Positions 3,332 to 64,000 of a DNA stretch of 64,000 nt are shown piece by piece. Made by a program: the position numbers and the translations under genes. How positions within the stretch are numbered: position 1 is the stretch's first letter; each line of letters begins with the position of its first letter. The notes under the pieces were generated by a model, which worked only from the letters and a program-made list of their open reading frames with translations, had not been told where the DNA came from and searched no databases. Source of the stretch: Patescibacteria group bacterium (lineage in GTDB: Bacteria > Patescibacteriota > Minisyncoccia > Minisyncoccales > Staskawiczbacteraceae); assembly GCA_038065715.1 (NCBI GenBank), contig JBBTQL010000004.1, forward strand, positions 35,693 to 99,692, given 5' to 3'.

Positions 3332-4057
3332 TTAGTTTTTTAGGTTAGAGTAAATATCGTTTACTGCATCGTTTTCGTCTAAGGCTTCAAAGAGTTTTTG
3401 CGCTTGTTGTTTTTCTTTTTCTGAAATTTCAACTTCTTCTTTAGCAACATAATCCAAAGACGCAGATTCAATTTTAATCCCCTTTTCTTCTAAGGATTTT
3501 TTTACGCTATCTAAATCTTCTATTTTTGTATAAATTTCAAGTTCGTCTCCGCGCCACTTTACATCATCTGCGCCAGCTTCTATGGCTAAAAGCTCCAGTT
3601 CTTCTTTTGTTTTATTGTTTCCGCTAACAGATATAGCTCCTTTTCTCTCAAACATCCATCTCACAGCTCCTTCGCCTGCCATTTTTCCGTTATTTTGGTT
3701 TAAAATAGATTTTATTTCTCCCAAAGTCCTGTTTGTATTGTCTGTAATGCCGTTAATTATTAAAGCGATTCCTCCTGGCCCAAATCCCTCAAAAGACACC
3801 TCTTCTAAAGTTTCTCCTGCCAATTCTCCGGTACCTTTTTTAATTGCCCGTTCAATATTTTCTTTGGGCATATTCATATTTTTAGCCTGTTCTATCACAG
3901 CCTTAAGTTTGGCGTTTTTAAATGGGTCTCCCGATCCCCCTCCTTCTTTGACGGCTATTGTAATTAACCGGCCATATTTAGAATATATTTTTCCTTTTTT
4001 GGCATCATTGGCCATCTTTGTGGCCATAATTGTTTTTGCATGACTATGTCCCGACAT
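3332..4057 (-). CDS. yebC: YebC/PmpR family DNA-binding transcriptional regulator
   Basis: MSGHSHAKTIMATKMANDAKKGKIYSKYGRLITIAVKEGGG... signature of the YebC family. Forms the common ruvC-yebC arrangement. Confidence 0.85.
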   Translation of the reverse strand: MSGHSHAKTIMATKMANDAKKGKIYSKYGRLITIAVKEGGGSGDPFKNAKLKAVIEQAKNMNMPKENIERAIKKGTGELAGETLEEVSFEGFGPGGIALIINGITDNTNRTLGEIKSILNQNNGKMAGEGAVRWMFERKGAISVSGNNKTKEELELLAIEAGADDVKWRGDELEIYTKIEDLDSVKKSLEEKGIKIESASLDYVAKEEVEISEKEKQQAQKLFEALDENDAVNDIYSNLKN

Positions 4058-5070: not shown

Positions 5071-6084
5071 TTAAATTAATGGACTTTGATTGTTCTTTGG
5101 TTTAAGCCCAAAATGTTCATAGGCAAGTTTTGAGGCGACTCTGCCCTTTGGAGTTCTTTCAATAAAACCGCATTGCATCAAATAGGGTTCGTAAATATCT
5201 AAAATAGAATCTTCTTCTTCCATGGCAGCAGCCGACAAAGATTGAAGCCCCACTGGACCGCCGTTAAATTTTTCTATCAAAGCTTTTAATATAGATCTGT
5301 CGCTGGAATCTAACCCCATTTTATCCACTTCTAAAGAATTTAGCGCATCATTTGCAATTTCTTTTGTGATAAATCCATCACTTTTAACTTCTGCAAAATC
5401 TCTAACTCTTTTAAAAAGTCGGTTGGCAACCCTTGGAGTAAAACGAGACCTCTTTGCTATAATTTTTACGGCTTCTGGCTCAATCCCCACATTTAAAATT
5501 TTTCCTGACCTTTCAATTATTTTTTCAATATCTTCATTTGAGTAAAAATTTAATTGAAAAGTCGCGCCAAAGCGATTTCTTAAGGGCGAGGACAAAAGCC
5601 CGGGCCTTGTTGTGGCTCCAATCATTGTAAAATGAGGCAACTTTAATTCCATTGTTCTTGCCATAGGTCCTTTGCCTAAAATTAAATTAAGCTTGTACTC
5701 TTCCATGGCAGGATATAAATATTCTTCAACCGTTTTATTTATTCTATGTATTTCATCTAAAAACAAAACATCGCCTTCTGATAAATTAGTTAGAATTGCC
5801 GCCAAATCTCCGGCTCTTTCTACGGCAGGGCCCGAAGTCACCCTAATGGACTTGCCCATTTCATTGGCAACTAAATATGCCAGCGTGGTTTTTCCTAATC
5901 CAGAGTTCCCATAAAATAATAAATGGTCAGGCGACTGGCTTCTTTTTTTTGCCGCTGTTATTATTATCCTGATATTTTCTTTGATTTTTTCCTGGCCCAC
6001 ATACTCTTGCCAGTTTTTTGGTCGCAAAGCAGAATCCAGCGCGTTATCGTCATTGTTTATTTTTTCTGGTAAAACTCTTGACAT
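5071..6084 (-). CDS. ruvB: Holliday junction branch migration helicase RuvB
   Basis: LRPKNWQEYVGQEKIKENI...LLFYGNSGLGKTTLAYLVANEMG Walker A. AAA+ RuvB architecture. 337 aa. Confidence 0.9.
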   Translation of the reverse strand: MSRVLPEKINNDDNALDSALRPKNWQEYVGQEKIKENIRIIITAAKKRSQSPDHLLFYGNSGLGKTTLAYLVANEMGKSIRVTSGPAVERAGDLAAILTNLSEGDVLFLDEIHRINKTVEEYLYPAMEEYKLNLILGKGPMARTMELKLPHFTMIGATTRPGLLSSPLRNRFGATFQLNFYSNEDIEKIIERSGKILNVGIEPEAVKIIAKRSRFTPRVANRLFKRVRDFAEVKSDGFITKEIANDALNSLEVDKMGLDSSDRSILKALIEKFNGGPVGLQSLSAAAMEEEDSILDIYEPYLMQCGFIERTPKGRVASKLAYEHFGLKPKNNQSPLI

Positions 6085-6170
6085 AAGCTTTATAAGGTGA
6101 TATAATTAAATTTATTGACGCCTACAATTTATTATAACAAATTTGTTCGTATTATTTATAGGTTTTGCTA

Positions 6171-6305
6171 AAACAGCTCTGGAGTTGGAGGTTTTATATG
6201 GGTTTGTCTCAGTTTCCGGGTAATCTTGCTCCGGCTCGATTATTCCTCAGACAAACTTTTACTTATGTCCCAGACATAAAGACACCTCCAACTCCAGAGC
6301 TGTTT
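6171..6305. repeat. MITE-like unit: perfect 21-bp terminal inverted repeats flanking a 93-nt core
   Basis: aaacagctctggagttggagg at 6171-6191 is the exact reverse complement of 6285-6305. The core has internal hairpins. Confidence 0.5.
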
Positions 6306-6343
6306 TCCCCCGTTTCTAGTTCTTTGTTTTTAGGAGAAACGCC

Positions 6344-6520
6344 ATGAGAAAAATATGTATTATCGGGCATTCCATTTCCTGGGTGGCAGTTGTTCTATAT
6401 ATACTTGCTTGCACTTTTGCACCAGAGTTGGCCGGAAAGCACAACTGGGCAGCAATACTGTCTTTCGCCGCTCTTGGGATGTTCTCTTTTCTCCACTTCT
6501 CAGTTGTTGATGCTAAATAA
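6344..6520 (+). CDS. Small hydrophobic protein (58 aa, probably 2 TM helices)
   Basis: Strong SD taggagaaacgcc followed by ATG. Hydrophobic ORF MRKICIIGHSISWVAVVLYILACTFAPELAGKHNWAAILSFAALGMFSFLHFSVVDAK. Intrinsic terminator follows. Not in the ORF track (<60 aa). Confidence 0.4.
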   Translation: MRKICIIGHSISWVAVVLYILACTFAPELAGKHNWAAILSFAALGMFSFLHFSVVDAK

Positions 6521-6537
6521 ACATTCAACAACCTCAC

Positions 6538-6578
6538 AAAAGTCCTAGTAGGCTTCGCCCAACGGACTTTATTTTTTT
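6538..6578 (+). terminator. Intrinsic terminator (aagtcc...ggactt + T7)
   Basis: Hairpin at 6540-6569 followed by tattttttt. Confidence 0.5.
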
Positions 6579-6581
6579 AAA

Positions 6582-7913
6582 CTAACCAGCTGGCTGCTCT
6601 TCGTCTTCCTCGACAACCCTCAAAACTTCTTCTAATGTTGTATCTCCTAAAACAACATCAATTAAACCCGACTGGTACATTGTGACCATCCCCTTTTTGA
6701 TGGCTAATTCCCTAATTGATGAAACTGGAGGATTAGTTAAAATAAATTTTTCCATTTGCGAGTCTACTAAAAATACTTCAAATAATCCCTGCCTTCCTTT
6801 ATATCCTGTAAAGTTGCAAGCCTCGCACCCTTTTTCTTTTGTTTTTGCAATTTGTATTTTATTTAAATCAGGAAGGATAATATCGTTGGGCAGATTTTTT
6901 AACCCTTTTTTTATTTCAGATAATTCGCTTGCAGTCGGCTTTGCAAGGGTTGAGCATTTTTTGCATACTTTTCTTACCAATCTTTGGGCTACTGTCATTT
7001 TTAATCCTGATGCGATTGATGACGGTTCTGTGCCTAGGTCCACAAGCCTTGGAATGGTGCCAGCAGCGTCATTAGTATGTAAAGTTGATAATACCAAGTG
7101 GCCAGTTAAAGCCGCTTGCAGGGCTATTTTAGCGGTTTCAAGGTCTCTAATTTCACCAACCAATATAACATCGGGGTCTTGCCTTACTATTGACCTTAGC
7201 CCGTCTGAAAAGTCATATCCTTTTTCTGGAGCCACTTGTGTTTGAGAAACGCCTTTTAAGTGATATTCAATCGGGTCCTCAATTGTGATAATTTTAATTT
7301 CTGGATTTTGAATCTTCATTAAAAAAGCGTAAAGAGTAGTTGTTTTTCCAGAACCCGTAGGACCTGTAACAATTATCATTCCATTGGGCTTTTCAATTTC
7401 TTTTTGAAAAATTTTATATAAATCTTTTCTTAATCCTAAAGAATCTAACCCAATTAAATTTTTTGGATTTAAAATTCTCATTACAATTGATTCGCCATAT
7501 TCAGCCGGCAGGCTGGAAGTTCTTATTTCTATTAATGAGTCCTCAATTTCTATGGTAAACCTTCCGTCTTGCGGCTTATCTGTGATATTTAATTTAAGCC
7601 TAGAGAGAAGCTTTAATCTGGAAATTAAGCTGTGATATATTTTTTCGTCAAAAAAAACAACGTCCTGTAAGACGCCGTCTAACCTTATTCTTAACCTTGA
7701 GTTATTTTCCTGCGGCTCTATATGTATATCAGAAGTATCAAGCGCTATGGCTCCAAACAAAATAACATCTAAAAGATTTGTGGTATTTTGCGTTATGTAT
7801 TCTTCTATCTTTGCTTTAAAATTGGAAATACTTTTAACATCTTTTTTTACTTCAACTATAACATCTTTTGAAATAGCTACGGTTCCTAATAATTTTTTCT
7901 TTGTTTCATTCAT
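6582..7913 (-). CDS. pilB: Type II/IV secretion-system ATPase (PilB/GspE family)
   Basis: Walker A GPTGSGKTTTLYA. GEIRD/Asp box and His box. C-terminal CxxC. 443 aa. Confidence 0.8.
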   Translation of the reverse strand: MNETKKKLLGTVAISKDVIVEVKKDVKSISNFKAKIEEYITQNTTNLLDVILFGAIALDTSDIHIEPQENNSRLRIRLDGVLQDVVFFDEKIYHSLISRLKLLSRLKLNITDKPQDGRFTIEIEDSLIEIRTSSLPAEYGESIVMRILNPKNLIGLDSLGLRKDLYKIFQKEIEKPNGMIIVTGPTGSGKTTTLYAFLMKIQNPEIKIITIEDPIEYHLKGVSQTQVAPEKGYDFSDGLRSIVRQDPDVILVGEIRDLETAKIALQAALTGHLVLSTLHTNDAAGTIPRLVDLGTEPSSIASGLKMTVAQRLVRKVCKKCSTLAKPTASELSEIKKGLKNLPNDIILPDLNKIQIAKTKEKGCEACNFTGYKGRQGLFEVFLVDSQMEKFILTNPPVSSIRELAIKKGMVTMYQSGLIDVVLGDTTLEEVLRVVEEDEEQPAG

Positions 7914-24218: not shown

Positions 24219-24878
24219 ATGGCTGTGCAAGTCATTGGCGATCTATATGTGGAGTTGGATGGGAAGTTGGCGGAGATTAAGCGGCAAATGAGGCAGCAGG
24301 GAGGCTATCCGTTTGACCCGGAGAAATTAAACAAGTTTCTCCAACTAGCTGTCGAGGGCAGGTTCAACGACAACCGGTGCTGGTGCGAGAAGGAAGGAGT
24401 GATCTACTTTGAGGTCACCTCTGACGGCACGACTGGACCCCAATGGATTGAGCGTCTGGAGAAGAAGGGTATCCAGCTCTCCAAGTGGGCCAAGGACGTC
24501 CTGCTGTCTCCGGACTTCAAGCCGACCAACGGCGTGACCACCGAGATCGCTGTCCTCAAGGGCGCGCTTTTTATGGACAATGATCGCATCACGTCTAAGA
24601 TCCGCGCTGAGGCCGACAAGCGCAAGCTCGTCAAGCCCGAAGCCGAACTCGGTTGCCTTATCCGCGACACGTTCACGGACGAGGAAATCGAAGCCATGGG
24701 TCTTGTGTGGATCGTGGCGTTCCACGAGCCCATCAAGGACTCTGACGGCGATCCGACGTTGCTCGGTGCGCGTCGCCTTGGCGATGGCCGTTGGCTGCGC
24801 GCGTGCTGCGGCCTGCCCGACCGCAGGTGGCTTCGCGACCGTGGCTTTGCCTTCGCCGTCTCGCAAGTATCTTCGTAA
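24219..24878 (+). CDS. DGR variable (target) protein A, with the variable region at its C-terminus
   Basis: SD aaaggagattgtc then ATG. 219 aa, ~57% GC. The C-terminal 42 codons are the VR matched by TR-A. Confidence 0.75.
   Translation: MAVQVIGDLYVELDGKLAEIKRQMRQQGGYPFDPEKLNKFLQLAVEGRFNDNRCWCEKEGVIYFEVTSDGTTGPQWIERLEKKGIQLSKWAKDVLLSPDFKPTNGVTTEIAVLKGALFMDNDRITSKIRAEADKRKLVKPEAELGCLIRDTFTDEEIEAMGLVWIVAFHEPIKDSDGDPTLLGARRLGDGRWLRACCGLPDRRWLRDRGFAFAVSQVSS
24741..24866 (+). repeat. DGR-A variable repeat (VR)
   Basis: 126 nt aligned to TR-A (25208-25333). Mismatches fall essentially only where the TR has A (e.g. TR aatcgcaatgac vs VR cgtcgccttggc). The 3' end ggctttgccttcgccgtctcgcaa is identical (IMH-like). 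Confidence 0.8.
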
Positions 24879-25207
24879 GTCCTTTGGGCTTGAGCCTTTG
24901 CTCTAGCCCTTGGATCCTCTGCCCTTTGCATTTCCTCACGGACTTGCACTGGGCAGATTTTTTTTGCTAAAATATAAATGGTAATAGGTGAATCTTGCGG
25001 GAGATCAAGGTTTCCCGCGGCCGAATCCAGTATTCGTATGCTGAGAGCGTTTGCGATTAAGGTTGCAAACGGAGGGCATACGAATTACTTTCAAAAAAGA
25101 AGATACTTGGCGTGGGAAACTAGGGCATTACGATGCCGAATTCGATACAGCCCTGTGATCGTAAAACTACTTCAAGGGGCAGTGGCATAGATGGTTTCTT
25201 GCGTATT

Positions 25208-25333
25208 TCTGACGGCGATCCGAACTTGCTCAGTGCGAATCGCAATGACGATGGCCATTGGCTGAACGCGTACTACGACAAGCCCGACAACAGGTGGAAT
25301 CGCGACAATGGCTTTGCCTTCGCCGTCTCGCAA
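25208..25333 (+). repeat. DGR-A template repeat (TR)
   Basis: Non-coding copy of the VR, rich in AAC/AAT codons (…AACGCGTACTACGACAAGCCCGACAACAGGTGGAATCGCGACAAT…). Confidence 0.8.
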
Positions 25334-25339
25334 CTCTCT

Positions 25340-25699
25340 TCATTTCTCTCCTTGCTTAGGAGAGTTTTGTTTAATAATTTGTCCCGACCAACCACCGAGC
25401 ATTTTGCCAATTTCATCTAGTTTCAATGATAGAGCAATATATTTTTTGTTATCCAATGATTTTGTTTCCCAAAGAATCATTAAAAATATTTTTAACGTAT
25501 CGACCTTTCTAATTGCTAAACGTACATAGGACAATTTTTCTGATTGCCCAAGAAAACTTGCAGTCACTATTGCCTCTATTGCTTCAACAAAAAGTTTATC
25601 AATTTTTTCACCAAGAGAATATTTATGTATTTTTGGTATAATTAAATAGTGTTGGTACCAAAAAAGATAAGCTTCTTTCAACTTTTGCAAAACAGGCAA
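25340..25699 (-). CDS. avd: DGR accessory variability determinant Avd-A (TTG start)
   Basis: 120 aa. ...KYSLGEKIDKLFVEAIEAIVTASF...KLDEIGKMLGGWSGQIIKQ matches Avd four-helix-bundle proteins (compare Bordetella bAvd ...EVGRILGSWIARVNRK). Starts at TTG 25697-25699 just downstream of the C10 tract, as in copy B. The ORF track's longer start (25834) runs through the homopolymer. Confidence 0.7.
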   Translation of the reverse strand: MPVLQKLKEAYLFWYQHYLIIPKIHKYSLGEKIDKLFVEAIEAIVTASFLGQSEKLSYVRLAIRKVDTLKIFLMILWETKSLDNKKYIALSLKLDEIGKMLGGWSGQIIKQNSPKQGEK

Positions 25700-25705
25700 C
25701 AGTCT

Positions 25706-25715
25706 GGGGGGGGGG
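25706..25715. repeat. Homopolymeric G10 (C10 on the avd strand) in the avd/RT divergent intergenic region
   Basis: agtctGGGGGGGGGGattaaaag. The equivalent position in DGR-B has G7. Confidence 0.9.
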
Positions 25716-25739
25716 ATTAAAAGCTGAGTTATTTTGATT

Positions 25740-26726
25740 ATGAAAATTACTTTGCAACATAAATACGAAGACATCATAAGCGTTGAGAATATTTTGGAAG
25801 CATGGCAAGAGTTTCTTCTCGGCAAAAGAAACAAGCCCGATGTTCAAGAATTTTCTCTCTGTCTGATGAATAATGTTTTTAATTTGCACAACGACTTATC
25901 CAATCATACCTACAAACACGGAGGCTATCAACAATTTAAAATTAACGACCCAAAGCCAAGAACAATCCACAAAGCCAGCGTAAAAGACAGATTATTGCAC
26001 CACGCAGTATATCGTATATTATACCCGTTTTTTGATAAAAAGTTTATTGCAGACTCTTTCTCTTGCAGAAACAACAAAGGCACTCATAAAGCATTAAACA
26101 AATTCAGGGAGTTCAGCTATATTGTTTCCAAAAACAACACAAACACCTGCTGGATTTTAAAATGCGACATAAAAAAGTTTTTTGCCAGCGTTGATCAGCA
26201 GATACTAATTAAAATTTTAGAAAAATATATTTCAGAAAAAGATATTATCAACTTTCTAAAAGAAATAATTTTTGGTTTTAAACCCAATGGTTTGCCTCTC
26301 GGTAATTTGACTTCCCAGTTGTTCGCAAATGTTTATCTGAATGAATTTGACCAGTTTGTAAAACACAAATTGAAAGTAAAATACTATATTAGGTATGCCG
26401 ATGACTTCGTAATTTTATCAGAGAACAAAAATTATTTAAAAAACATAATTCCAGAGCTAAAATATTATTTAAAAAACAATTTAAAACTGGAAATTCATCC
26501 AAATAAAATTTTTATTAAAACATTGAATTCTGGCGTTGATTTTTTAGGCTGGATTAATTTTACAGATCATAGAGTTTTAAGGACAAAAACTAAAAACAGA
26601 ATATTAAAGAGAATAAAAAATAATTCAAGTATTGAAACATTAAATTCTTATTCGGGTTTGTTAAAACATGGAAATATGAACAAAATGATTAAGAAATTAT
26701 TTAAGGAAACGGAGATTGCTTTTTAA
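25740..26726 (+). CDS. DGR reverse transcriptase A
   Basis: RT motifs including GLPLGNLTSQLFANVYLNEFD (DGR-type motif 4) and YIRYADDFV (YxDD). 329 aa. Nearly identical to the partial RT at 63686. Confidence 0.85.
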   Translation: MKITLQHKYEDIISVENILEAWQEFLLGKRNKPDVQEFSLCLMNNVFNLHNDLSNHTYKHGGYQQFKINDPKPRTIHKASVKDRLLHHAVYRILYPFFDKKFIADSFSCRNNKGTHKALNKFREFSYIVSKNNTNTCWILKCDIKKFFASVDQQILIKILEKYISEKDIINFLKEIIFGFKPNGLPLGNLTSQLFANVYLNEFDQFVKHKLKVKYYIRYADDFVILSENKNYLKNIIPELKYYLKNNLKLEIHPNKIFIKTLNSGVDFLGWINFTDHRVLRTKTKNRILKRIKNNSSIETLNSYSGLLKHGNMNKMIKKLFKETEIAF

Positions 26727-34538: not shown

Positions 34539-34567
34539 TTGACACAGAGTTGAGGGGGGGGTATTAT
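34539..34567 (+). promoter_or_regulatory. Promoter TTGACA-N17-TATTAT whose spacer holds a G8 homopolymer (candidate phase-variable promoter)
   Basis: ttgaca 34539-34544. Spacer cagagttgaGGGGGGGG (17 nt, G run 34554-34561). tattat 34562-34567. Directly upstream of the secreted protein gene at 34665. Confidence 0.5.
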
Positions 34568-34664
34568 AAGATAATATCAAAAATATCAAATTTTTAGTTT
34601 TTAATTTCTAATTTTTTAAATAATTTTTCAATTTTAGAATTTTAAAATTAAAATTTAATAGCAT

Positions 34665-36359
34665 ATGAGAATAAAATATTTTTTAATAACAGCTGTTTTA
34701 GCAACATCAATTTTAGGTTCTGGCGGTTTTGTGAAAGCGCAAACCACAGACAATTCAGCGTTAATTGCCCAACTTCAAGCGCAAATTCAGGCAATTCTGC
34801 AACAAATAGCGCAACTGCAAGCTCAGCAAGATACAAACGCGGTCCAAAACTCTGCGTCAGAAAATGCTAATTCAGACAGTTCAAAAGCAAACTGGTGCTA
34901 TAATTTCAAACAAAACTTGTGGATTGGTAAAAATGGCAGGCCTGTTGAGGCTTTACAGATTGCTTTGTCTAAAGAAGGTTTGTTTGACGCCAGTTTAATT
35001 AAGAATCCATGGAGATTTGGCCCCTCTACCTTATTGGCAGTAATCAAGTTTCAGAATAAATATAGCATAAAACCAACAGGATATGTGGGCTTCGCCACAA
35101 ACAAAAAACTAAACGAACTCTACGGCTGCAAAACCACCGAGTCATCAGTTACAGTTACTTCGCCCAACGGCGGAGAGGAGTGGGTGCGAGGGTCAACTCA
35201 TAATGTTACGTGGACGTCTCAAAATGTGGAAAGAGATGTTTATCTTACAATTAAAAACTTTGACACAAACGTCATAAAGAGCATTTCTTTAGCGCCTGTT
35301 TCGCCGGTCAGCGATTCTGCTTCTTTTAATATTCCGTCTGATTTGGCCGTGGGAAACAAATATAAGGTTAGAGTGGGAAATAGCGATGTTTCAGATTACA
35401 GCGACAATTATTTTAGCATTCTTGATACAACAACTTCTTCAAATGCGTCTATTACCGTCACTTCGCCCAACGGCGGAGAAACATGGCAAGTCGGCGGAAC
35501 GCATAATATCACATGGTTCAGTCAGGGTGCAAATGCTATAAATTATAATGTTCAAATCGGAATTATTGATAATCGCTATAGTACGGAATCAGGAGATAGA
35601 TCCGAAAAAATTATAGTAAATTCTATTCCTAATACTGGCAGTTATTCTTGGACGGTGCCTCAATCTATTGGAACAATGAATCTGAATGATACTATCCAAC
35701 CGGTTTATAAAATTGTTGTACATTCTCGAAGTGATGCGGTTACAGGAGTGGCTCTTGGAGACTCGAGCGATAATCCTTTCAGTATTGTGGCGCCGACGGT
35801 TGCCTGTACGTCATTTACCTATTCAGCTTGGGGGGCTTGCCAGTCAAACAATACCCAAACAAGAACAGTTGTATCATCCTCGCCAACTGGATGCGCAGGA
35901 GGCAGCCCAATATTATCGCAATCTTGCGGAGTAGTAAAGACTGTATTCAGCAATAGCCAAATTTATCTTGACGCCAATAGCAAAGTAGCGCCCTTGTCTT
36001 GCACTAATTATAAGTGTAACGGCTCTTTTGGCTATTGCTCTGCTTCTTGCGGAGGAGGATATTATCCAGATAATTTAACAGCCCAGAAATTGTGCCAGAA
36101 AAAAGGTTACGATGCAGCTTCAAGTTTCACCATAAAAAATGGTTTTTATGCATCTTGCAGCGATAACTATATGTGGAAATGGAATGGGGTTAGCGCTGAA
36201 TATGTTTGGTCTTGCGTTAAAAATAGCGGTATAGACACTGTCACTTGCTCAAAAACTGTTGGGACTACGGCAAGCATTGATTCTCAAGATCAATTAGCGT
36301 CTATTTCTAGCGCAATACAAAGAATAGCTCAACAAATTCAAGCATTATTTGAAAGGTAA
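34665..36359 (+). CDS. Secreted protein with a peptidoglycan-binding domain, repeated SPNGGE-W-type beta domains and a Cys-rich C-terminus
   Basis: Signal peptide MRIKYFLITAVLATSILGSGGFVKA. Q-rich coiled coil. PG_binding_1-like GKNGRPVEALQIALSKEG...IKFQNKYSIKPTGYVG. Two VTVTSPNGGEEW/ETW..G.TH.TW repeats. Many Cys in the last 150 aa. Confidence 0.65.
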   Translation: MRIKYFLITAVLATSILGSGGFVKAQTTDNSALIAQLQAQIQAILQQIAQLQAQQDTNAVQNSASENANSDSSKANWCYNFKQNLWIGKNGRPVEALQIALSKEGLFDASLIKNPWRFGPSTLLAVIKFQNKYSIKPTGYVGFATNKKLNELYGCKTTESSVTVTSPNGGEEWVRGSTHNVTWTSQNVERDVYLTIKNFDTNVIKSISLAPVSPVSDSASFNIPSDLAVGNKYKVRVGNSDVSDYSDNYFSILDTTTSSNASITVTSPNGGETWQVGGTHNITWFSQGANAINYNVQIGIIDNRYSTESGDRSEKIIVNSIPNTGSYSWTVPQSIGTMNLNDTIQPVYKIVVHSRSDAVTGVALGDSSDNPFSIVAPTVACTSFTYSAWGACQSNNTQTRTVVSSSPTGCAGGSPILSQSCGVVKTVFSNSQIYLDANSKVAPLSCTNYKCNGSFGYCSASCGGGYYPDNLTAQKLCQKKGYDAASSFTIKNGFYASCSDNYMWKWNGVSAEYVWSCVKNSGIDTVTCSKTVGTTASIDSQDQLASISSAIQRIAQQIQALFER

Positions 36360-38037: not shown

Positions 38038-38054
38038 TTGTATTTATTATTTTA

Positions 38055-38403
38055 GTGGAAGCGCCGGGGTCGAACCCGGGTCCAGAAATTTTTTAAAAAT
38101 AAATCTACAAATTTATCTTGCTTTGTTGTTTGGATATTAAATAAGAAGCAAGAAAAATGTTTAATATCCTAATTCTCGTAAATCTCGACAGTTCCCCGAG
38201 AAATAAAACTGCCTATCCTGAAAATATAACACCCTCGGTCCATTTATCAGGAGTCAATGGCGAGGATGCAGCATTAAGCTAAAGCTAGTGCTGGTTGCCT
38301 ATTAAATAAATTAGCAATTATGTTTTTTCTATAAGTTTAACCAGGTTATAGAAAACTGGATTTGCATATTTTTAATGAAACATCTGTCAAAACTTACGCT
38401 CCC
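38055..38403 (-). ncRNA. ssrA: tmRNA (SsrA)
   Basis: 3' end GGACCCGGGTTCGACCCCGGCGCTTCCA (T-arm + acceptor) at 38056-38083 on the minus strand. 5' GGGAGCG at 38397-38403 pairs with the 3' CGCUUCC to form a 7-bp acceptor stem. Candidate tag reading frame gct aat tta ttt aat agg caa cca gca cta gct tta gct taa gives (A)NLFNRQPALALA* (plus 38274-38315). Lies immediately downstream of smpB. Confidence 0.65.
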
Positions 38404-57629: not shown

Positions 57630-57698
57630 AAAAGTAACTCTTTATTTCAGTCAAGATGACCGAAAAGAGTTAGACCCCCCCAGAAAGGAGAGTGCAAG

Positions 57699-57953
57699 AT
57701 GCTGGTTTTGTCCCGCAAGAAGAACGAGAGCATTGTCATCAACGACGATATCACGATTGTCGTGATAGAAATCCGCGGCGACAAGGTTCGCCTCGGCATT
57801 GATGCGCCAAAAGAGGTGCCTGTCCACCGGCGCGAAGTGTTTGACGCGATACGTCGCGATGATGCTTCAGCAGCTAGTACGGGGATTAAAACCTCCGAGA
57901 CCCCCGATAATCTGGAGGATCCCGCCGAGGAAAGCCCTCAAGACCCAGGTTAA
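57699..57953 (+). CDS. csrA: Carbon storage regulator CsrA (GC-rich, with an acidic C-terminal extension)
   Basis: MLVLSRKKNESIVINDDITIVVIEIRGDKVRLGIDAPKEVPVHRREVFDAI aligns along its full length with CsrA/RsmA. ~55% GC against a ~33% background. Confidence 0.8.
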   Translation: MLVLSRKKNESIVINDDITIVVIEIRGDKVRLGIDAPKEVPVHRREVFDAIRRDDASAASTGIKTSETPDNLEDPAEESPQDPG

Positions 57954-62025: not shown

Positions 62026-62201
62026 TTAATAATACAGCTCTTTTTAAGTGAAAATACTTGCAAAAACAGCGGTTATAGCCAAAAGCGACCGAAGGTCGTC
62101 CTGAGCAGAGCCGAAGGACAACAAATCGGTATTTTCTGGCTATGACTGCTATGGTAGTAGTCAAGCGAAATGGTGAAACCCTAAAGAAAGGAAAAAGCAC
62201 C

Positions 62202-62822
62202 ATGTCGTACGACAAGCAGACAGCCGAGTTCATCGCCACTGTGGTGCAGAACATCCCCAAAATGTCAGGCGATGTTATGCAGGGTTGGATTGGGAATCCA
62301 AAAGCGCTACAGAAGCTCCTCTTGGGTCTATGCCCTTCTGTCAATGAGCCCAAGGAAGTCTCGTTGCTCCGCAAGCTCGCCAGCGTTCAGGTGGAGGGCG
62401 TTGCAAGATTCGTCGTTGACGACGATACCCTGCAGGCGGCCAACATCGGCTGGACTGGCGACAACTTCAAAAAGTTTTTCGCCAAGAAGGTTGAGGAGGA
62501 TGTTCCCGCCTGCGCTATCGCTGTTCACCGGCTGGAACGCGCGTCTTCGGATGCGCCCATTCTCACCGAACTCGGTGACCGCGCCGAAATCAGCCTCGCG
62601 CACCTGTTCGAGCTGATCAAAAAGCAGTCCAAGGGCGAAACTGGCCAGTTGTTGGTTAATGGTTATGCGAATGTCGCATATGTCCGTGGAACCGATGGCA
62701 ACCTCTGGGCTGTGCTTGCGGCCTGGCGCTCTTACTGCGGTTGCTGGGGTGTCGAGGCTGACTCGGTTGAGGATCCGGACGGGTGGCGCGGTAGCCGCCG
62801 GATTCTCTCCCGCGATTCTTGA
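62202..62822 (+). CDS. DGR variable (target) protein B, with the variable region at the extreme C-terminus
   Basis: SD aaaggaaaaagcacc then ATG at 62202. ~57% GC. Last 36 codons = VR-B. The ORF track's upstream ATG (62142) lies in the conserved leader. Confidence 0.7.
   Translation: MSYDKQTAEFIATVVQNIPKMSGDVMQGWIGNPKALQKLLLGLCPSVNEPKEVSLLRKLASVQVEGVARFVVDDDTLQAANIGWTGDNFKKFFAKKVEEDVPACAIAVHRLERASSDAPILTELGDRAEISLAHLFELIKKQSKGETGQLLVNGYANVAYVRGTDGNLWAVLAAWRSYCGCWGVEADSVEDPDGWRGSRRILSRDS
62704..62813 (+). repeat. DGR-B variable repeat (VR)
   Basis: 110 nt aligned to TR-B (63165-63274). Substitutions essentially only at TR adenines (TR tac ggt tac tgg aat ... aac vs VR tgc ggt tgc tgg ggt ... 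gac). Shared 3' attctctcccgc. Confidence 0.8.
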
Positions 62823-62867: not shown

Positions 62868-62916
62868 TGGCTCTCTGAAACTTTGAAAAAAGTAGTAAGA
62901 GAGCCTTTTTGTTTTG
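62868..62916 (+). terminator. Intrinsic terminator after target B (ggctctct/agagagcc + T-run)
   Basis: 8-bp stem, 22-nt loop, ttttt gtttt. Confidence 0.5.
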
Positions 62917-63164
62917 TGAAAAAGTAATGTAGAATAAATCTAAGGAATGCTAAGTATGAAGGCTACGGCTTTCATAAAGCGCTCCGAAAATGTATATTGC
63001 AGAATTATTGCGGATACGTCTTCAATAAGAGTTGATATACATATTTCAAAAAAAGAAAAGAATCGGTGTGGCGTGCTGGCGGACTTTGAGGTCCCAAATA
63101 AGATACAGCCCCTAGAGTATTCAAAGGGCAGTGGCATTGATGGCGCGTTGCATATTAATTAGGG

Positions 63165-63274
63165 TCTGGGCTGTGAATGCGAACTGGAACTCTAACTACG
63201 GTTACTGGAATGTCGAGGCTAACTCGGTTGAGAATCCGAACAGGTGGAACGATAGCAACCAGATTCTCTCCCGC
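63165..63274 (+). repeat. DGR-B template repeat (TR)
   Basis: AAC/AAT-rich (…AACTGGAACTCTAACTACGGTTACTGGAATGTCGAGGCTAACTCG…). Encodes LWAVNANWNSNYGYWNVEANSVENPNRWNDSNQ in the VR frame. Confidence 0.8.
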
Positions 63275-63642
63275 TACTGTTTTCTTTCTTCCGCTTTTAT
63301 CGCGGAAGTTTTGCTTATTATTCCTTTTTTCCAGCCACCGATTATCTTACCAATGCCTTCTATCTCAGCGCCAAGCGAGATATATTGTTTATTAGAAACG
63401 AGTTTTGTTTCCCATAAAAGCTGAAAGAAAAAACGCAACGAATCAATTTTGTCCGATGTCGCTTCAAGCAAAACAAGTTTTTTATTTATTGGCGTATACG
63501 TAGCTTTTCTTAATAACTCAAGAAGATCTAAAAATAAAATATCTACTTTAGTCCCGATTCCGAACCGCGCGATTCGTTCAATATTGCGATGCACTTCCAT
63601 CCACTGTTTATATATCAATTTGGATTTTTGCAAAACTGGCAA
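63274..63642 (-). CDS. avd: DGR accessory variability determinant Avd-B (TTG start)
   Basis: 122 aa. ...LGAEIEGIGKIIGGWKKGIISK C-terminus. Co-linear with Avd-A. Stop codon overlaps the last 2 nt of TR-B. TTG start 6 nt from the C7 tract. Confidence 0.7.
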   Translation of the reverse strand: MPVLQKSKLIYKQWMEVHRNIERIARFGIGTKVDILFLDLLELLRKATYTPINKKLVLLEATSDKIDSLRFFFQLLWETKLVSNKQYISLGAEIEGIGKIIGGWKKGIISKTSAIKAEERKQ

Positions 63643-63648
63643 CAGTCT

Positions 63649-63655
63649 GGGGGGG
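63649..63655. repeat. Homopolymeric G7 in the avd-B/RT-B divergent intergenic region
   Basis: agtctGGGGGGGattagaag. Homologous position to the G10 tract in DGR-A. Confidence 0.9.
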
Positions 63656-63685: not shown

Positions 63686-64000
63686 ATGAAAATTGTTTTG
63701 AAACATAAATATGAATATTTAATTAGCGTTAATAATTTATTGGAAGCGTGGACAGAATTTATCAAGGGGAAGCGCAACAAAAGCGATGTTCAGATTTTTT
63801 CATTTCATTTAATGGATAATATTTTACAACTTCATTGTGATTTAAAAAATGGCACATATAAGCATGGAGGCTATCAACAATTTAAAATCAACGACCCAAA
63901 ACCAAGGATAATTCACAAAGCCAGCGTAAAAGACAGATTATTGCACCACGCAGTATATCGTATATTATACCCGTTTTTTGATAAAAAGTTCATTGCAGAC
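63686..64000 (+). CDS. DGR reverse transcriptase B (5' part; continues beyond the window)
   Basis: MKIVLKHKYEYLISVNNLLEAWTEFIKGKRNK...GGYQQFKINDPKPRIIHKASVKDRLLHHAVYRILYPFFDKKFIAD. The last ~130 nt are ~95% identical at the DNA level to RT-A 25920-26050. Confidence 0.85.
   Translation, partial: MKIVLKHKYEYLISVNNLLEAWTEFIKGKRNKSDVQIFSFHLMDNILQLHCDLKNGTYKHGGYQQFKINDPKPRIIHKASVKDRLLHHAVYRILYPFFDKKFIAD

Follow-up and report, generated by a model that had tools for sequence, protein, structure and literature searches.

Does an avd gene that lies antisense between the template repeat (TR) and the RT gene of a DGR also serve, through its opposite strand, as part of the DGR RNA? The question is raised by a 64,000-nucleotide stretch of DNA from a Patescibacteria group bacterium (hereafter the window), which carries two cassettes of this kind, A and B. 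The original prediction regarded their architecture as unusual and proposed that the ~360 nt separating TR from RT would be dual-use, with Avd encoded on one strand and a priming or structural RNA on the other. We report here that dual RNA use concerns the last ~45 bases of avd only and not the whole gene.

Anatomy of the two cassettes

The ORFs and repeats of the window, together with profile matches, place the genes of both cassettes in the predicted order, target(+)-TR(+)-avd(-)-RT(+). The DNA stems from a groundwater community (Hainich H43), and ERZ1292632 and CAYISB010000001.1 carry this locus as well. In cassette A, the target gene (24219–24878, plus strand), with zero Pfam or NCBIfam matches, carries VR-A in its C-terminal part (24741–24874), the end of which is 4 nt short of the target stop. 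The corresponding template repeat, TR-A (25208–25341, plus strand), differs from VR-A by 21 TR-A-to-N changes and one non-A change, with a few non-A mismatches from 25334 onward. In cassette B, VR-B (62704–62820) ends at the very stop of the target gene (62142–62822, plus strand), and TR-B (63165–63281, plus strand; perfect run to 63274) differs from it by 21 changes, all at A. RT-A (25740–26726, plus strand, ATG at 25740) matches Pfam RVT_1 (1.2e-24) and displays LGNLTSQ and YADD in its translation; in NCBIfam, where the comparison included no DGR-specific RT profile, it gave sub-threshold group II intron and retron matches only. RT-B (63686–64000, plus strand, ATG at 63686) is cut by the end of the window and is 80% identical to RT-A. 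RT relatives exceed 8000 and are mainly from Patescibacteria.

On the minus strand, avd-A (25340–25699) encodes 119 amino acids from a TTG at 25699, and avd-B (63274–63642) encodes 122 from a TTG at 63642. The former scores 45.3 bits against Pfam bAvd (1.4e-11; cut-off 40 bits) and 65 bits against NCBIfam DivGenRetAVD (6.5e-18), below the 80-bit cut-off but in a full-length alignment; the latter, also aligned over its full length, scores 57 bits against DivGenRetAVD, below the same cut-off, and 37.8 bits against bAvd, just below the 40-bit one. In keeping with the original prediction, no avd homologue is encoded on the plus strand anywhere in the window. With A-specific TR/VR changes, a DGR-type RT, an Avd and a VR at the 3' end of the target, both cassettes are DGRs.

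The predicted contacts between avd and its neighbours were confirmed. The avd-A stop (plus-strand TCA, 25340–25342) is located 7 nt past the last perfectly matched TR base and falls in the last 2 nt of TR/VR homology, while the avd-B stop, at 63274, overlaps the end of TR-B. The avd and RT starts, expected ~40 nt apart, are separated by 40 nt in cassette A and 43 nt in cassette B, and avd occupies 90% of the TR–RT interval.

Antisense avd in related DGRs

A survey of other DGRs, which had been suggested along with the prediction, showed that the arrangement is anything but unusual: avd lies on the opposite strand, head-to-head with RT, in all 74 of the informative relatives (loci with enough upstream sequence), and is hence the rule in this RT clade. 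Because all of these loci share it, the antisense arrangement is not due to chance. For 58 loci, the VR could be placed upstream and on the same strand. The order TR-(avd)-RT was named Architecture B3 by Wu et al. 2018 (NAR 46:11; PMC5758913), who found it in 90% of their CPR DGRs; it corresponds to clade 2 of Roux et al. 2021 (PMC8144416), a DGR clade restricted to Patescibacteria. Cassettes A and B present TR, reverse-strand avd and RT in the order of Architecture B3, with no further accessory gene, and are best explained as ordinary members of this Patescibacteria-restricted lineage (clade 2; Architecture B3). The layout itself is nothing new, being the catalogued norm for Patescibacteria DGRs.

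A structured leader upstream of the TR

The TR is preceded by a covariation-rich leader of ~200 nt, which is a conserved structured RNA. Leader A (24986–25207, plus strand) comprises hairpins H1 and H2, an A-rich linker (25093–25106) and a three-way junction P1/P2/P3, the 3' strand of which adjoins the TR; leader B, delimited by alignment, spans 62935–63164 on the plus strand, with its linker at 63048–63064. The RNAalifold consensus of 49 loci contains 41 pairs, of which 38 display compensatory changes. Pairing is maintained in 96.7% of cells compared with 75.8% after shuffling (0/500), and the covariation score reaches 0.744 against 0.30 for shuffled alignments (0/500). The derived covariance model, R1, matches 25048–25211 in cassette A (118.8 bits) and 63005–63160 in cassette B (139.7 bits), and it gave a single plus-strand match per cassette in 70 cases, including ~27 loci outside the seed alignment. 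When leader, TR and downstream hairpin are folded together, the z-score is -3.28 for cassette A and only -1.36 for cassette B.

No known RNA family in Rfam covers either the leader or the spacer: a gathering-threshold scan of the whole window returned tmRNA only, and an E-value scan of 24880–25760 gave one chance-level match (E = 0.2). The idea that the RGTGG junction of the leader pairs with the strand opposite the Avd GGW codons was dropped, as covariation at that place cannot be assessed.

A trailer written over the avd tail

Downstream of the TR extends a trailer of ~45 nt, the only part that overlaps avd, at the stop codon and a non-conserved Lys-rich tail. In cassette A it includes the strand TCTTCATTT (25337..25345, plus strand), which encompasses the avd-A stop and pairs with the leader linker, more precisely with GAAGA at 25099–25103 and three A's of the A-run at 25093–25098, one trailer A being bulged. 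The upstream strand of this duplex is found ~110 nt before the TR. Leader and trailer pair in one fixed register in 20 of 33 loci, with covariation of the terminal pair (A:U, C:G or U:A); cognate duplexes are stronger than non-cognate ones, none of 10,000 permutations reaching the cognate mean energy. Beyond the duplex strand contributed by the leader, at a distance of 2 nt, stands an invariant A (25105 in cassette A) which, by analogy and as a lead only, is a candidate for the cDNA-priming adenosine.

The trailer also contains a terminator-like hairpin. In cassette A, arms CTCTCC and GGAGAG enclose the loop ttgctta (25346–25364, plus strand) and TTTTGTTT prolongs the element to 25372, antisense to avd-A codons ~109–118. 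In cassette B, arms CTTCCGC and GCGGAAG enclose ttttatc and are followed by TTTTGCTT (63288..63316 overall, plus strand), antisense to the avd-B tail. Hairpin A is the sole terminator-like site in 24700–26000, and hairpin B likewise the sole one in its cassette. Under strict criteria, a hairpin followed by a T-tract occupies the same place after the TR in 58/72 loci, compared with 8.4% of background windows. It typically starts 12–16 nt after the TR end, and in most loci 334–335 nt separate the end of its stem from avd codon 1; stem sequences vary among loci, with compensatory changes. Judging from these sequence features, hairpin and U-tract probably terminate transcription and, because they directly follow the TR, the TR RNA would mostly end before the avd body. 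In the overlap with the avd tail, RNA/DNA structure is a stronger constraint than protein, and avd abuts the TR because its tail is written over the TR-RNA trailer.

No sign of a second RNA function in the avd body

The remaining ~310 nt, the avd body, show no sign of a second RNA function. Two comparative analyses, both of limited power with Avd proteins 25–77% identical, agree on this point: synonymous-codon identity remains at 0.9–1.1 of expectation over codons 2–107 (slightly raised, 1.05–1.11, at codons 98–107) and attains 1.2–1.5, up to 2.2, at codons 109–119 only; and RNAalifold predicted no pairs at all, on either strand, for 30 diverse avd genes in a codon-anchored alignment. The latter result speaks for the body only, because the poorly aligned tail hides the tail hairpin. 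Folding of the plus strand from TR to RT, a check suggested with the prediction, revealed no unusual stability in comparison with shuffled spacers (z = -0.46 and +0.54). Of the proposed dual use, what stands is the avd stop and the last ~12–15 codons, antisense to conserved RNA, whereas codons 2–107 gave no RNA signal. An RNA element could hide in nucleotides fixed by the conserved GKxLGGW motif.

The avd start codon

The avd genes had been predicted to start on TTG without an SD. TTG is indeed codon 1 in both cassettes, where it coincides with position 1 of the Avd profile, and no SD-like motif precedes it in either; this absence is unremarkable, since 35 of the 38 long ORFs of the window likewise have none. 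The start itself is not conserved, however, as only 33/71 relatives have a canonical start at the codon-1 position, and the role of TTG as the start codon is uncertain. No stop codon interrupts the avd-A ORF upstream as far as 25834, and two in-frame ATGs (25774 and 25777) are found past a C-tract. In ~61/75 loci, the reading frame of an ATG that lies antisense to the conserved His-7 codon of RT continues through the tract; this upstream ATG is in frame with avd in ~10–16 loci and out of frame in ~50. The in-frame state is thus not enriched, and a constitutive N-terminal extension of avd from the upstream ATG was rejected, the in-frame rate being no better than chance.

A length-variable tract between avd and RT

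In cassette A, this tract is G10 (25706..25715; read as C10 in the avd direction) and separates the first avd codon from the RT start; a second, independent assembly that covers the locus has G9. Cassette B has G7 between its avd and RT genes (63649..63655), invariant in three independent contigs. Across loci, the tract takes the form of C6-14 (mode 10) in 68 cases and of (CA)n or (CT)n, up to 16 units, in six. Among the 76 such tracts detected in 547 kb, 70 sit in the avd–RT gap, and three of the other six are at contig starts just upstream of RT. Length varies from G9 to G12 over 12 contigs of one locus and from G10 to G12 in another, homopolymer sequencing or assembly errors being a possible contribution. 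As pairing partners of the G-tract, pyrimidine-rich sequences at the TR 3' end and C-rich segments of the leader were considered and discarded, no consistent complement being found. No prior description of a length-variable avd–RT tract was found in the DGR papers compared here.

The repeat looks like a candidate phase-variation switch. A joint reading, which we offer tentatively and consider doubtful, would make it a hypermutable contingency switch coupled to a "permuted" DGR RNA. Changes in tract length would shift avd in or out of frame with the upstream ATG, or alter the promoter or leader geometry of avd/RT; in the permuted RNA, a large RT/Avd scaffold would lie 5' of the TR, with the leader strand pairing just 3' of the TR in a primer-like geometry. 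If this were true, a stochastic switch would gate a targeted hypermutator, turning the diversification machinery on and off, and the tract could explain how cells protect an already adapted target from being randomised over and over by their DGR.

Transcription units and alternative readings

A terminator-like hairpin with a T8 run, recognised by sequence and fold, follows target gene A (24919..24965, plus strand) and may act as its terminator; a similar hairpin, recognised likewise, follows target gene B (62869–62911, plus strand). Next to the former, TGCTAAAAT (24965–24973, plus strand) is a possible extended -10 for the TR RNA. A consensus promoter scan of both cassettes yielded no convincing candidate for the TR RNA, RT or avd, with match counts at shuffle level, and the avd–RT gap contained nothing that convincingly resembled a sigma-70-type promoter of RT or avd. 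By-eye -35/-10 boxes around the G-tract (TAnnnT directly after the tract in some loci; CATAAT antisense of the RT start) were inconsistent across loci and were not retained.

We consider it probable that each cassette consists of three transcription units, namely the target, a discrete TR RNA and a divergent avd/RT pair, with an avd body that is purely protein-coding. The target gene would have its own terminator. The second unit would be a non-coding TR RNA of ~400 nt made of the ~200-nt structured leader, the TR and the ~45-nt trailer, whose first ~9–12 nt would pair back to the A-rich linker of the leader before the hairpin and U-tract; leader and trailer would together form the RT-Avd scaffold, a role that in the Bordetella phage DGR falls to the 140-nt spacer downstream of the TR. 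In the third unit, avd(-) and RT(+) would diverge from starts 40 nt apart flanking the hypervariable G/C tract, with promoters of their own in or beside this 40-nt gap. RT mRNA could also arise by read-through from the TR unit, because the gap contains no convincing RT promoter.

A single plus-strand transcript running from TR to RT, with the whole ~360-nt antisense avd as functional priming or structural spacer, would accord with the long TR–RT spacer required by the Bordetella phage DGR, with the near-complete filling of the interval by avd and with the lack of a clear separate RT promoter. It is nevertheless highly improbable: codons 2–107 exhibit no excess of synonymous conservation, consensus structure or fold stability, a terminator-like hairpin and U-tract separate TR from avd body in at least 58/72 loci, and Avd-A and Avd-B are only ~35% identical while leader and trailer are conserved. 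We also deem unlikely a shorter spacer resembling that of phage BPP-1, in which the post-TR hairpin would bind Avd and the RNA would run ~100 nt into antisense avd, the latter supplying the priming adenosine and RT-binding elements so that about one third of avd would be dual-use. The position of the hairpin, 12–16 nt past the TR, does match BPP-1 Sp 3-33, putative Avd-binding stem-loops just 3' of the TR were reported by Handa et al. in 207/278 DGRs, CPR members among them, and synonymous identity is slightly up at codons 98–107. In most loci, however, a U-run directly follows the stem, the next 100 nt display no conserved structure or sequence beyond coding, the post-TR strand finds its pairing partner in the 5' leader rather than downstream, and it is on the 5' side of the TR that the large conserved RNA domain is found.

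The overlap might instead be regulatory and not structural, if the convergent 3' ends of TR RNA and avd mRNA formed a duplex or if polymerases collided, thereby coupling TR-RNA abundance to Avd synthesis. The conserved position of the overlap fits this idea, as does the minus-strand hairpin, which has no U-tract, so that avd transcripts probably continue into antisense TR. Tight packing explains the overlap equally well, though, and the compensatory changes in the hairpin favour a folded single strand over an intermolecular duplex, making such regulation quite improbable. The three-unit reading defines likely TR-RNA boundaries and a conserved fold for the largest uncultivated DGR clade, and provides a concrete ~400-nt construct for in vitro work.

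Comparison with known systems

At the level of architecture, the two cassettes do not differ from Architecture B3 and clade 2, with which they share gene order, orientation, a target upstream on the RT strand, targets without recognisable domains, and CPR/Patescibacteria hosts. The DGR papers compared (Wu 2018, Roux 2021) make no mention of the leader RNA, of a terminator-like trailer lying within the avd tail or of the G/C tract.

Poly-G tracts of the Campylobacter phasome (PMC6321876) and that of the Neisseria porA promoter (PMC3639595) are examples of SSR contingency loci, which the avd–RT tract resembles: it is a G/C homopolymer (8–14 nt) or a dinucleotide repeat, keeps a constant position in a promoter or 5' region, and varies in length among otherwise identical sequences. 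It differs from them in that it lies between two enzyme genes of a mutagenesis machine and not at a surface-antigen gene, and in that the avd in-frame state is not enriched.

Cassettes A and B have several features in common with the Bordetella phage BPP-1 DGR (Handa et al. 2018, PMC6182149; Handa et al., bioRxiv 10.1101/2023.10.23.563531): an RT with [LIV]GxxxSQ and YxDD, a four-helix-bundle Avd as its partner, TR-to-VR changes specific to adenines, a hairpin at the corresponding place 3' of the TR, and a duplex between sequences on the two sides of the TR. The avd gene of BPP-1 precedes the TR and has the same direction, whereas here it is antisense and at the position of Sp. The 140 nt downstream of the BPP-1 TR are essential, and the stem-loop right after the TR binds Avd and is not a terminator; at the corresponding site, the hairpin found here in most loci has a terminator-like U-tract, but it could, by analogy, bind Avd with the RNA continuing. 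The duplex has its upstream strand within 20 nt of the TR in BPP-1 and ~110 nt before it here. In BPP-1-type RNA, cDNA is primed from the 2'-OH of an adenosine in flanking RNA, and ~100 nt of further conserved 3' RNA provide the priming site, thumb ring and RT-binding stem; on the antisense strand of avd, neither conservation beyond that of the coding sequence nor a consensus structure was seen, and the 3' flank, unlike that of BPP-1, is only ~45 nt long and ends in a U-tract. The large RT-binding RNA of BPP-1 (Sp, 140 nt) is 3' of the TR, while the large conserved domain here is 5' of it. These DGRs may put their RT-binding RNA on the side of the template opposite to that of the only biochemically studied system.

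Organization of the DGR cassettes

Two DGR cassettes lie 38 kb apart in the window. Cassette A consists of a target gene (24219-24878, plus strand; an ORF with its variable repeat, VR, at 24741-24874), the template repeat TR-A (25208-25341, plus strand, the repeat of VR-A), avd-A (25340-25699, minus strand) and RT-A (25740-26726, plus strand, RVT_1 match). Cassette B repeats this order with its target gene (62142-62822, plus strand; VR at 62704-62820), TR-B (63165-63274/81, plus strand), avd-B (63274-63642, minus strand) and RT-B, a plus-strand homologue of RT-A that starts at 63686 and is cut by the window end. TR-to-VR changes comprise 21 at adenines and one at a non-A position in cassette A, and 21, at adenines only, in cassette B. 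Over their full length, the minus-strand ORFs match Pfam bAvd (1.4e-11 for avd-A, 2.9e-9 for avd-B) and NCBIfam DivGenRetAVD (6.5e-18 and 1.4e-15, under the curated cut-off), while no further avd homologue was found on either strand within the window. In A, the avd stop follows the last perfectly matched TR base at a distance of 7 nt, in B at 0 nt, and the avd and RT starts are separated by 40 nt (A) and 43 nt (B). ORFs, profile matches and coordinates thus confirm in both cassettes the original prediction that avd is antisense between TR and RT.

The same prediction regarded this layout as unusual, which it is not: it corresponds to "Architecture B3, TR-(avd)-RT", which represents 90% of the CPR DGR set of Wu et al. 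(2018) and is nearly absent elsewhere, and in Roux et al. (2021) the lineage is DGR clade 2, which is cellular and found only in Patescibacteria. The protein collection contains over 8000 relatives of RT-A; the top 120 listed share 69-81% identity with it, and every named one comes from Patescibacteria. We compared 80 genomic loci, all from GTDB species representatives, of which 74 extend beyond ~150 nt upstream of RT; in all 74, avd and RT lie head-to-head on opposite strands, about 20-60 nt apart. The remaining six end too near RT for avd orientation to be judged. The antisense-avd layout is hence already explained by published surveys. In five loci (L010, L047, L070, L073 and L076), the avd frame runs past the hairpin that follows TR without a nearby stop and stays open for 110-190 nt more, through the TR antisense. 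The L073 contig additionally carries a second RT homologue (5988-7037) and two further G10 tracts (3404-3413 and 5253-5262) outside the analysed avd-RT gap.

TTG is the sole start candidate for the Avd N-terminus in both cassettes, as predicted. Of 71 relatives, 32 have TTG as the aligned codon and 17 a different codon for Leu, and any canonical start codon is present in only 33; of the Leu codons used here, 65% are TTG, versus 20% in the rest of avd. TTG is therefore probably the avd start in many loci, not all. The missing SD of avd is uninformative, because only 3 of the 38 window ORFs of at least 200 codons are preceded by an SD-like motif in the 20 nt before the start. In many of these long ORFs the ATG directly follows an AT-rich, -10-like sequence, which suggests that initiation is leaderless or SD-independent. 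One of the few ORFs with a strong SD (AAAGGAGA) is target gene A (24219).

Extent of the dual-use segment

The ~360 nt between TR and RT had been proposed to serve both as the Avd gene and as a priming or structural RNA spacer. For 71 non-redundant avd genes aligned by codon, codon sharing where the amino acid is equal gave an observed/expected ratio of 0.9-1.1 over codons 2-107, raised only at codon 1 (2.4) and at codons 109-119 (1.2-1.5 in windows, up to 2.2 at single codons). RNAalifold, applied to the codon-anchored alignment, returned no consensus structure in the avd body on either strand, and the plus strand between the U-tract after TR and the start of RT is no more stable when folded than its dinucleotide shuffles (z = -0.46 for A, +0.54 for B). 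Identity between Avd-A and Avd-B is only ~35%, against 80% between the RTs, so the avd segment is fast-evolving; this divergence, shared by leader and target, possibly reflects cassette-specific Avd-RNA pairing. The cassettes also differ in leader helices and targets. With synonymous sites, consensus structure and fold scores all null, a functional RNA spacer in the avd body is not supported. Dual use is real but far smaller, the avd stop and tail overlying the trailer, i.e. the part of the TR RNA 3' of TR.

This trailer contains the only terminator-like site in 1.3 kb of each cassette, on the plus strand directly 3' of TR: a hairpin at 25346-25364 followed by TTTTGTTTAA in A, and at 63288-63308 followed by TTTTGCTTAT in B. 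The same criteria detected such a site in the equivalent 145-nt window of 58/72 related loci versus 8.4% of other windows, and in most of the 14 failing loci this hairpin is present but its loop is longer. Stem sequence varies among loci; in most, 334-335 nt separate the stem end and avd codon 1. Antisense to hairpin and U-tract is the Lys-rich, non-conserved Avd tail, which coincides with the synonymous constraint. Since Handa et al. reported putative Avd-binding stem-loops after TR in CPR DGRs, the hairpin may bind Avd, terminate transcription, or both.

A structured leader paired with the trailer

The leader, ~200 nt 5' of TR on the plus strand (24986-25207 in A, 62935-63164 in B), was delineated by covariation and a covariance model as two hairpins, then a three-way junction whose 12-bp closing helix ends exactly at TR. 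Compensatory changes occur in 38/41 RNAalifold pairs; in an unfitted MAFFT alignment, 96.7% of leader cells are paired, versus 75.8% when shuffled and 32-55% with partners slid, and the covariation score is 0.744 versus 0.30 shuffled (0/500). The junction covariance model yields one plus-strand match per cassette, 70 in total, including ~27 loci outside the seed, and two matches in the window (25048-25211 and 63005-63160). No Rfam 15 family matches the leader. Elsewhere in the window, RF00023 identifies a tmRNA gene (38053-38403, minus strand, 112 bits).

With target genes carrying their own terminator-like hairpins (24919-24965 in A, 62869-62911 in B), the TR RNA looks like a discrete, separate unit of ~400 nt. 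On the RT strand, avd-A contains a perfect extended -10 (TGGTATAAT, 25634-25642, plus strand), 98 nt before the RT start; this sequence is conserved neither in cassette B nor in relatives.

Between TR and hairpin, a trailer strand of 9-12 nt (TCTTCATTT in A, 25337-25345), which includes the avd stop, pairs with an A-rich leader linker of consensus AAAAAATGAAGA followed by tAc. Cognate duplexes reach -6.7 kcal/mol versus -5.2 kcal/mol for non-cognate ones (0/10000 permutations), the register is identical in 20/33 loci, and the terminal pair covaries (A:U, C:G or U:A). The leader strand ends directly across from the 3' edge of TR, a primer-like geometry, with an invariant A two nucleotides past it (25105 in A); we infer that cDNA may be primed from the leader.

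A variable tract in the avd-RT gap

A repeat tract separates avd codon 1 from the RT start (G10 at 25706-25715 in A, G7 at 63649-63655 in B), lying 5-20 nt upstream of avd codon 1 in 74/76 informative cassettes. On the avd strand it is C6-14 in 68 loci (mode C10), a (CA)n or (CT)n repeat with up to 16 units in six, and absent in two. Tracts of this kind total 76 over the 547 kb of loci; the avd-RT gap contains 70 of them, and for three more the contig starts immediately upstream of RT. Between otherwise identical contigs, length varies from G9 to G10 in cassette A, from G9 (five contigs) through G10 (four) and G11 (two) to G12 (one) at a second locus, and from G10 to G12 at a third; three contigs of cassette B all have the short G7. 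Assemblies often break at the tract, several contigs ending there and one scaffold being gapped. The tract is thus a candidate contingency locus, homopolymer sequencing error being a possible alternative. In most loci an open frame runs through the tract from an ATG antisense to the conserved RT His-7 codon; this ATG shares the avd frame in only ~10-16 of ~65 loci. In cassette A, some upstream ATG is in frame in the G9 and G10 states alike, and gene callers extend avd-A to 139 and 145 aa, respectively. No paper tying DGRs to such a tract was found in the literature covered.

Two other tracts were seen in the window. A G8 tract (34554-34561) occupies the 17-nt spacer of a promoter-like, near-consensus TTGACA-N17-TATTAT site (34539-34570) upstream of an ORF (34665-36359, plus strand), the classic geometry for promoter-spacer phase variation; an intergenic C7 tract (57675-57681) lies just 5' of another ORF (57699-57953, plus strand).

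Comparison with the BPP-1 DGR

Leader RNA, leader-trailer duplex and variable tract are family-wide, and we found no prior description of them in the literature covered; these are the parts deserving follow-up. The biochemically studied DGR of Bordetella phage BPP-1 depends on 20 nt of avd on the 5' side of TR and on a 140-nt spacer (Sp) on the 3' side. In this spacer, Sp 3-33 forms an Avd-binding stem-loop, the 2'-OH of A56 primes cDNA synthesis, Sp 59-70 forms a duplex with the avd segment 5' of TR, and Sp 82-139 binds RT. The Patescibacteria RNA likewise has a stem-loop where Sp 3-33 would lie and a duplex between sequences on either side of TR. Unlike that of BPP-1, it has nothing conserved 3' of the U-tract, and its large conserved domain lies 5' of TR.
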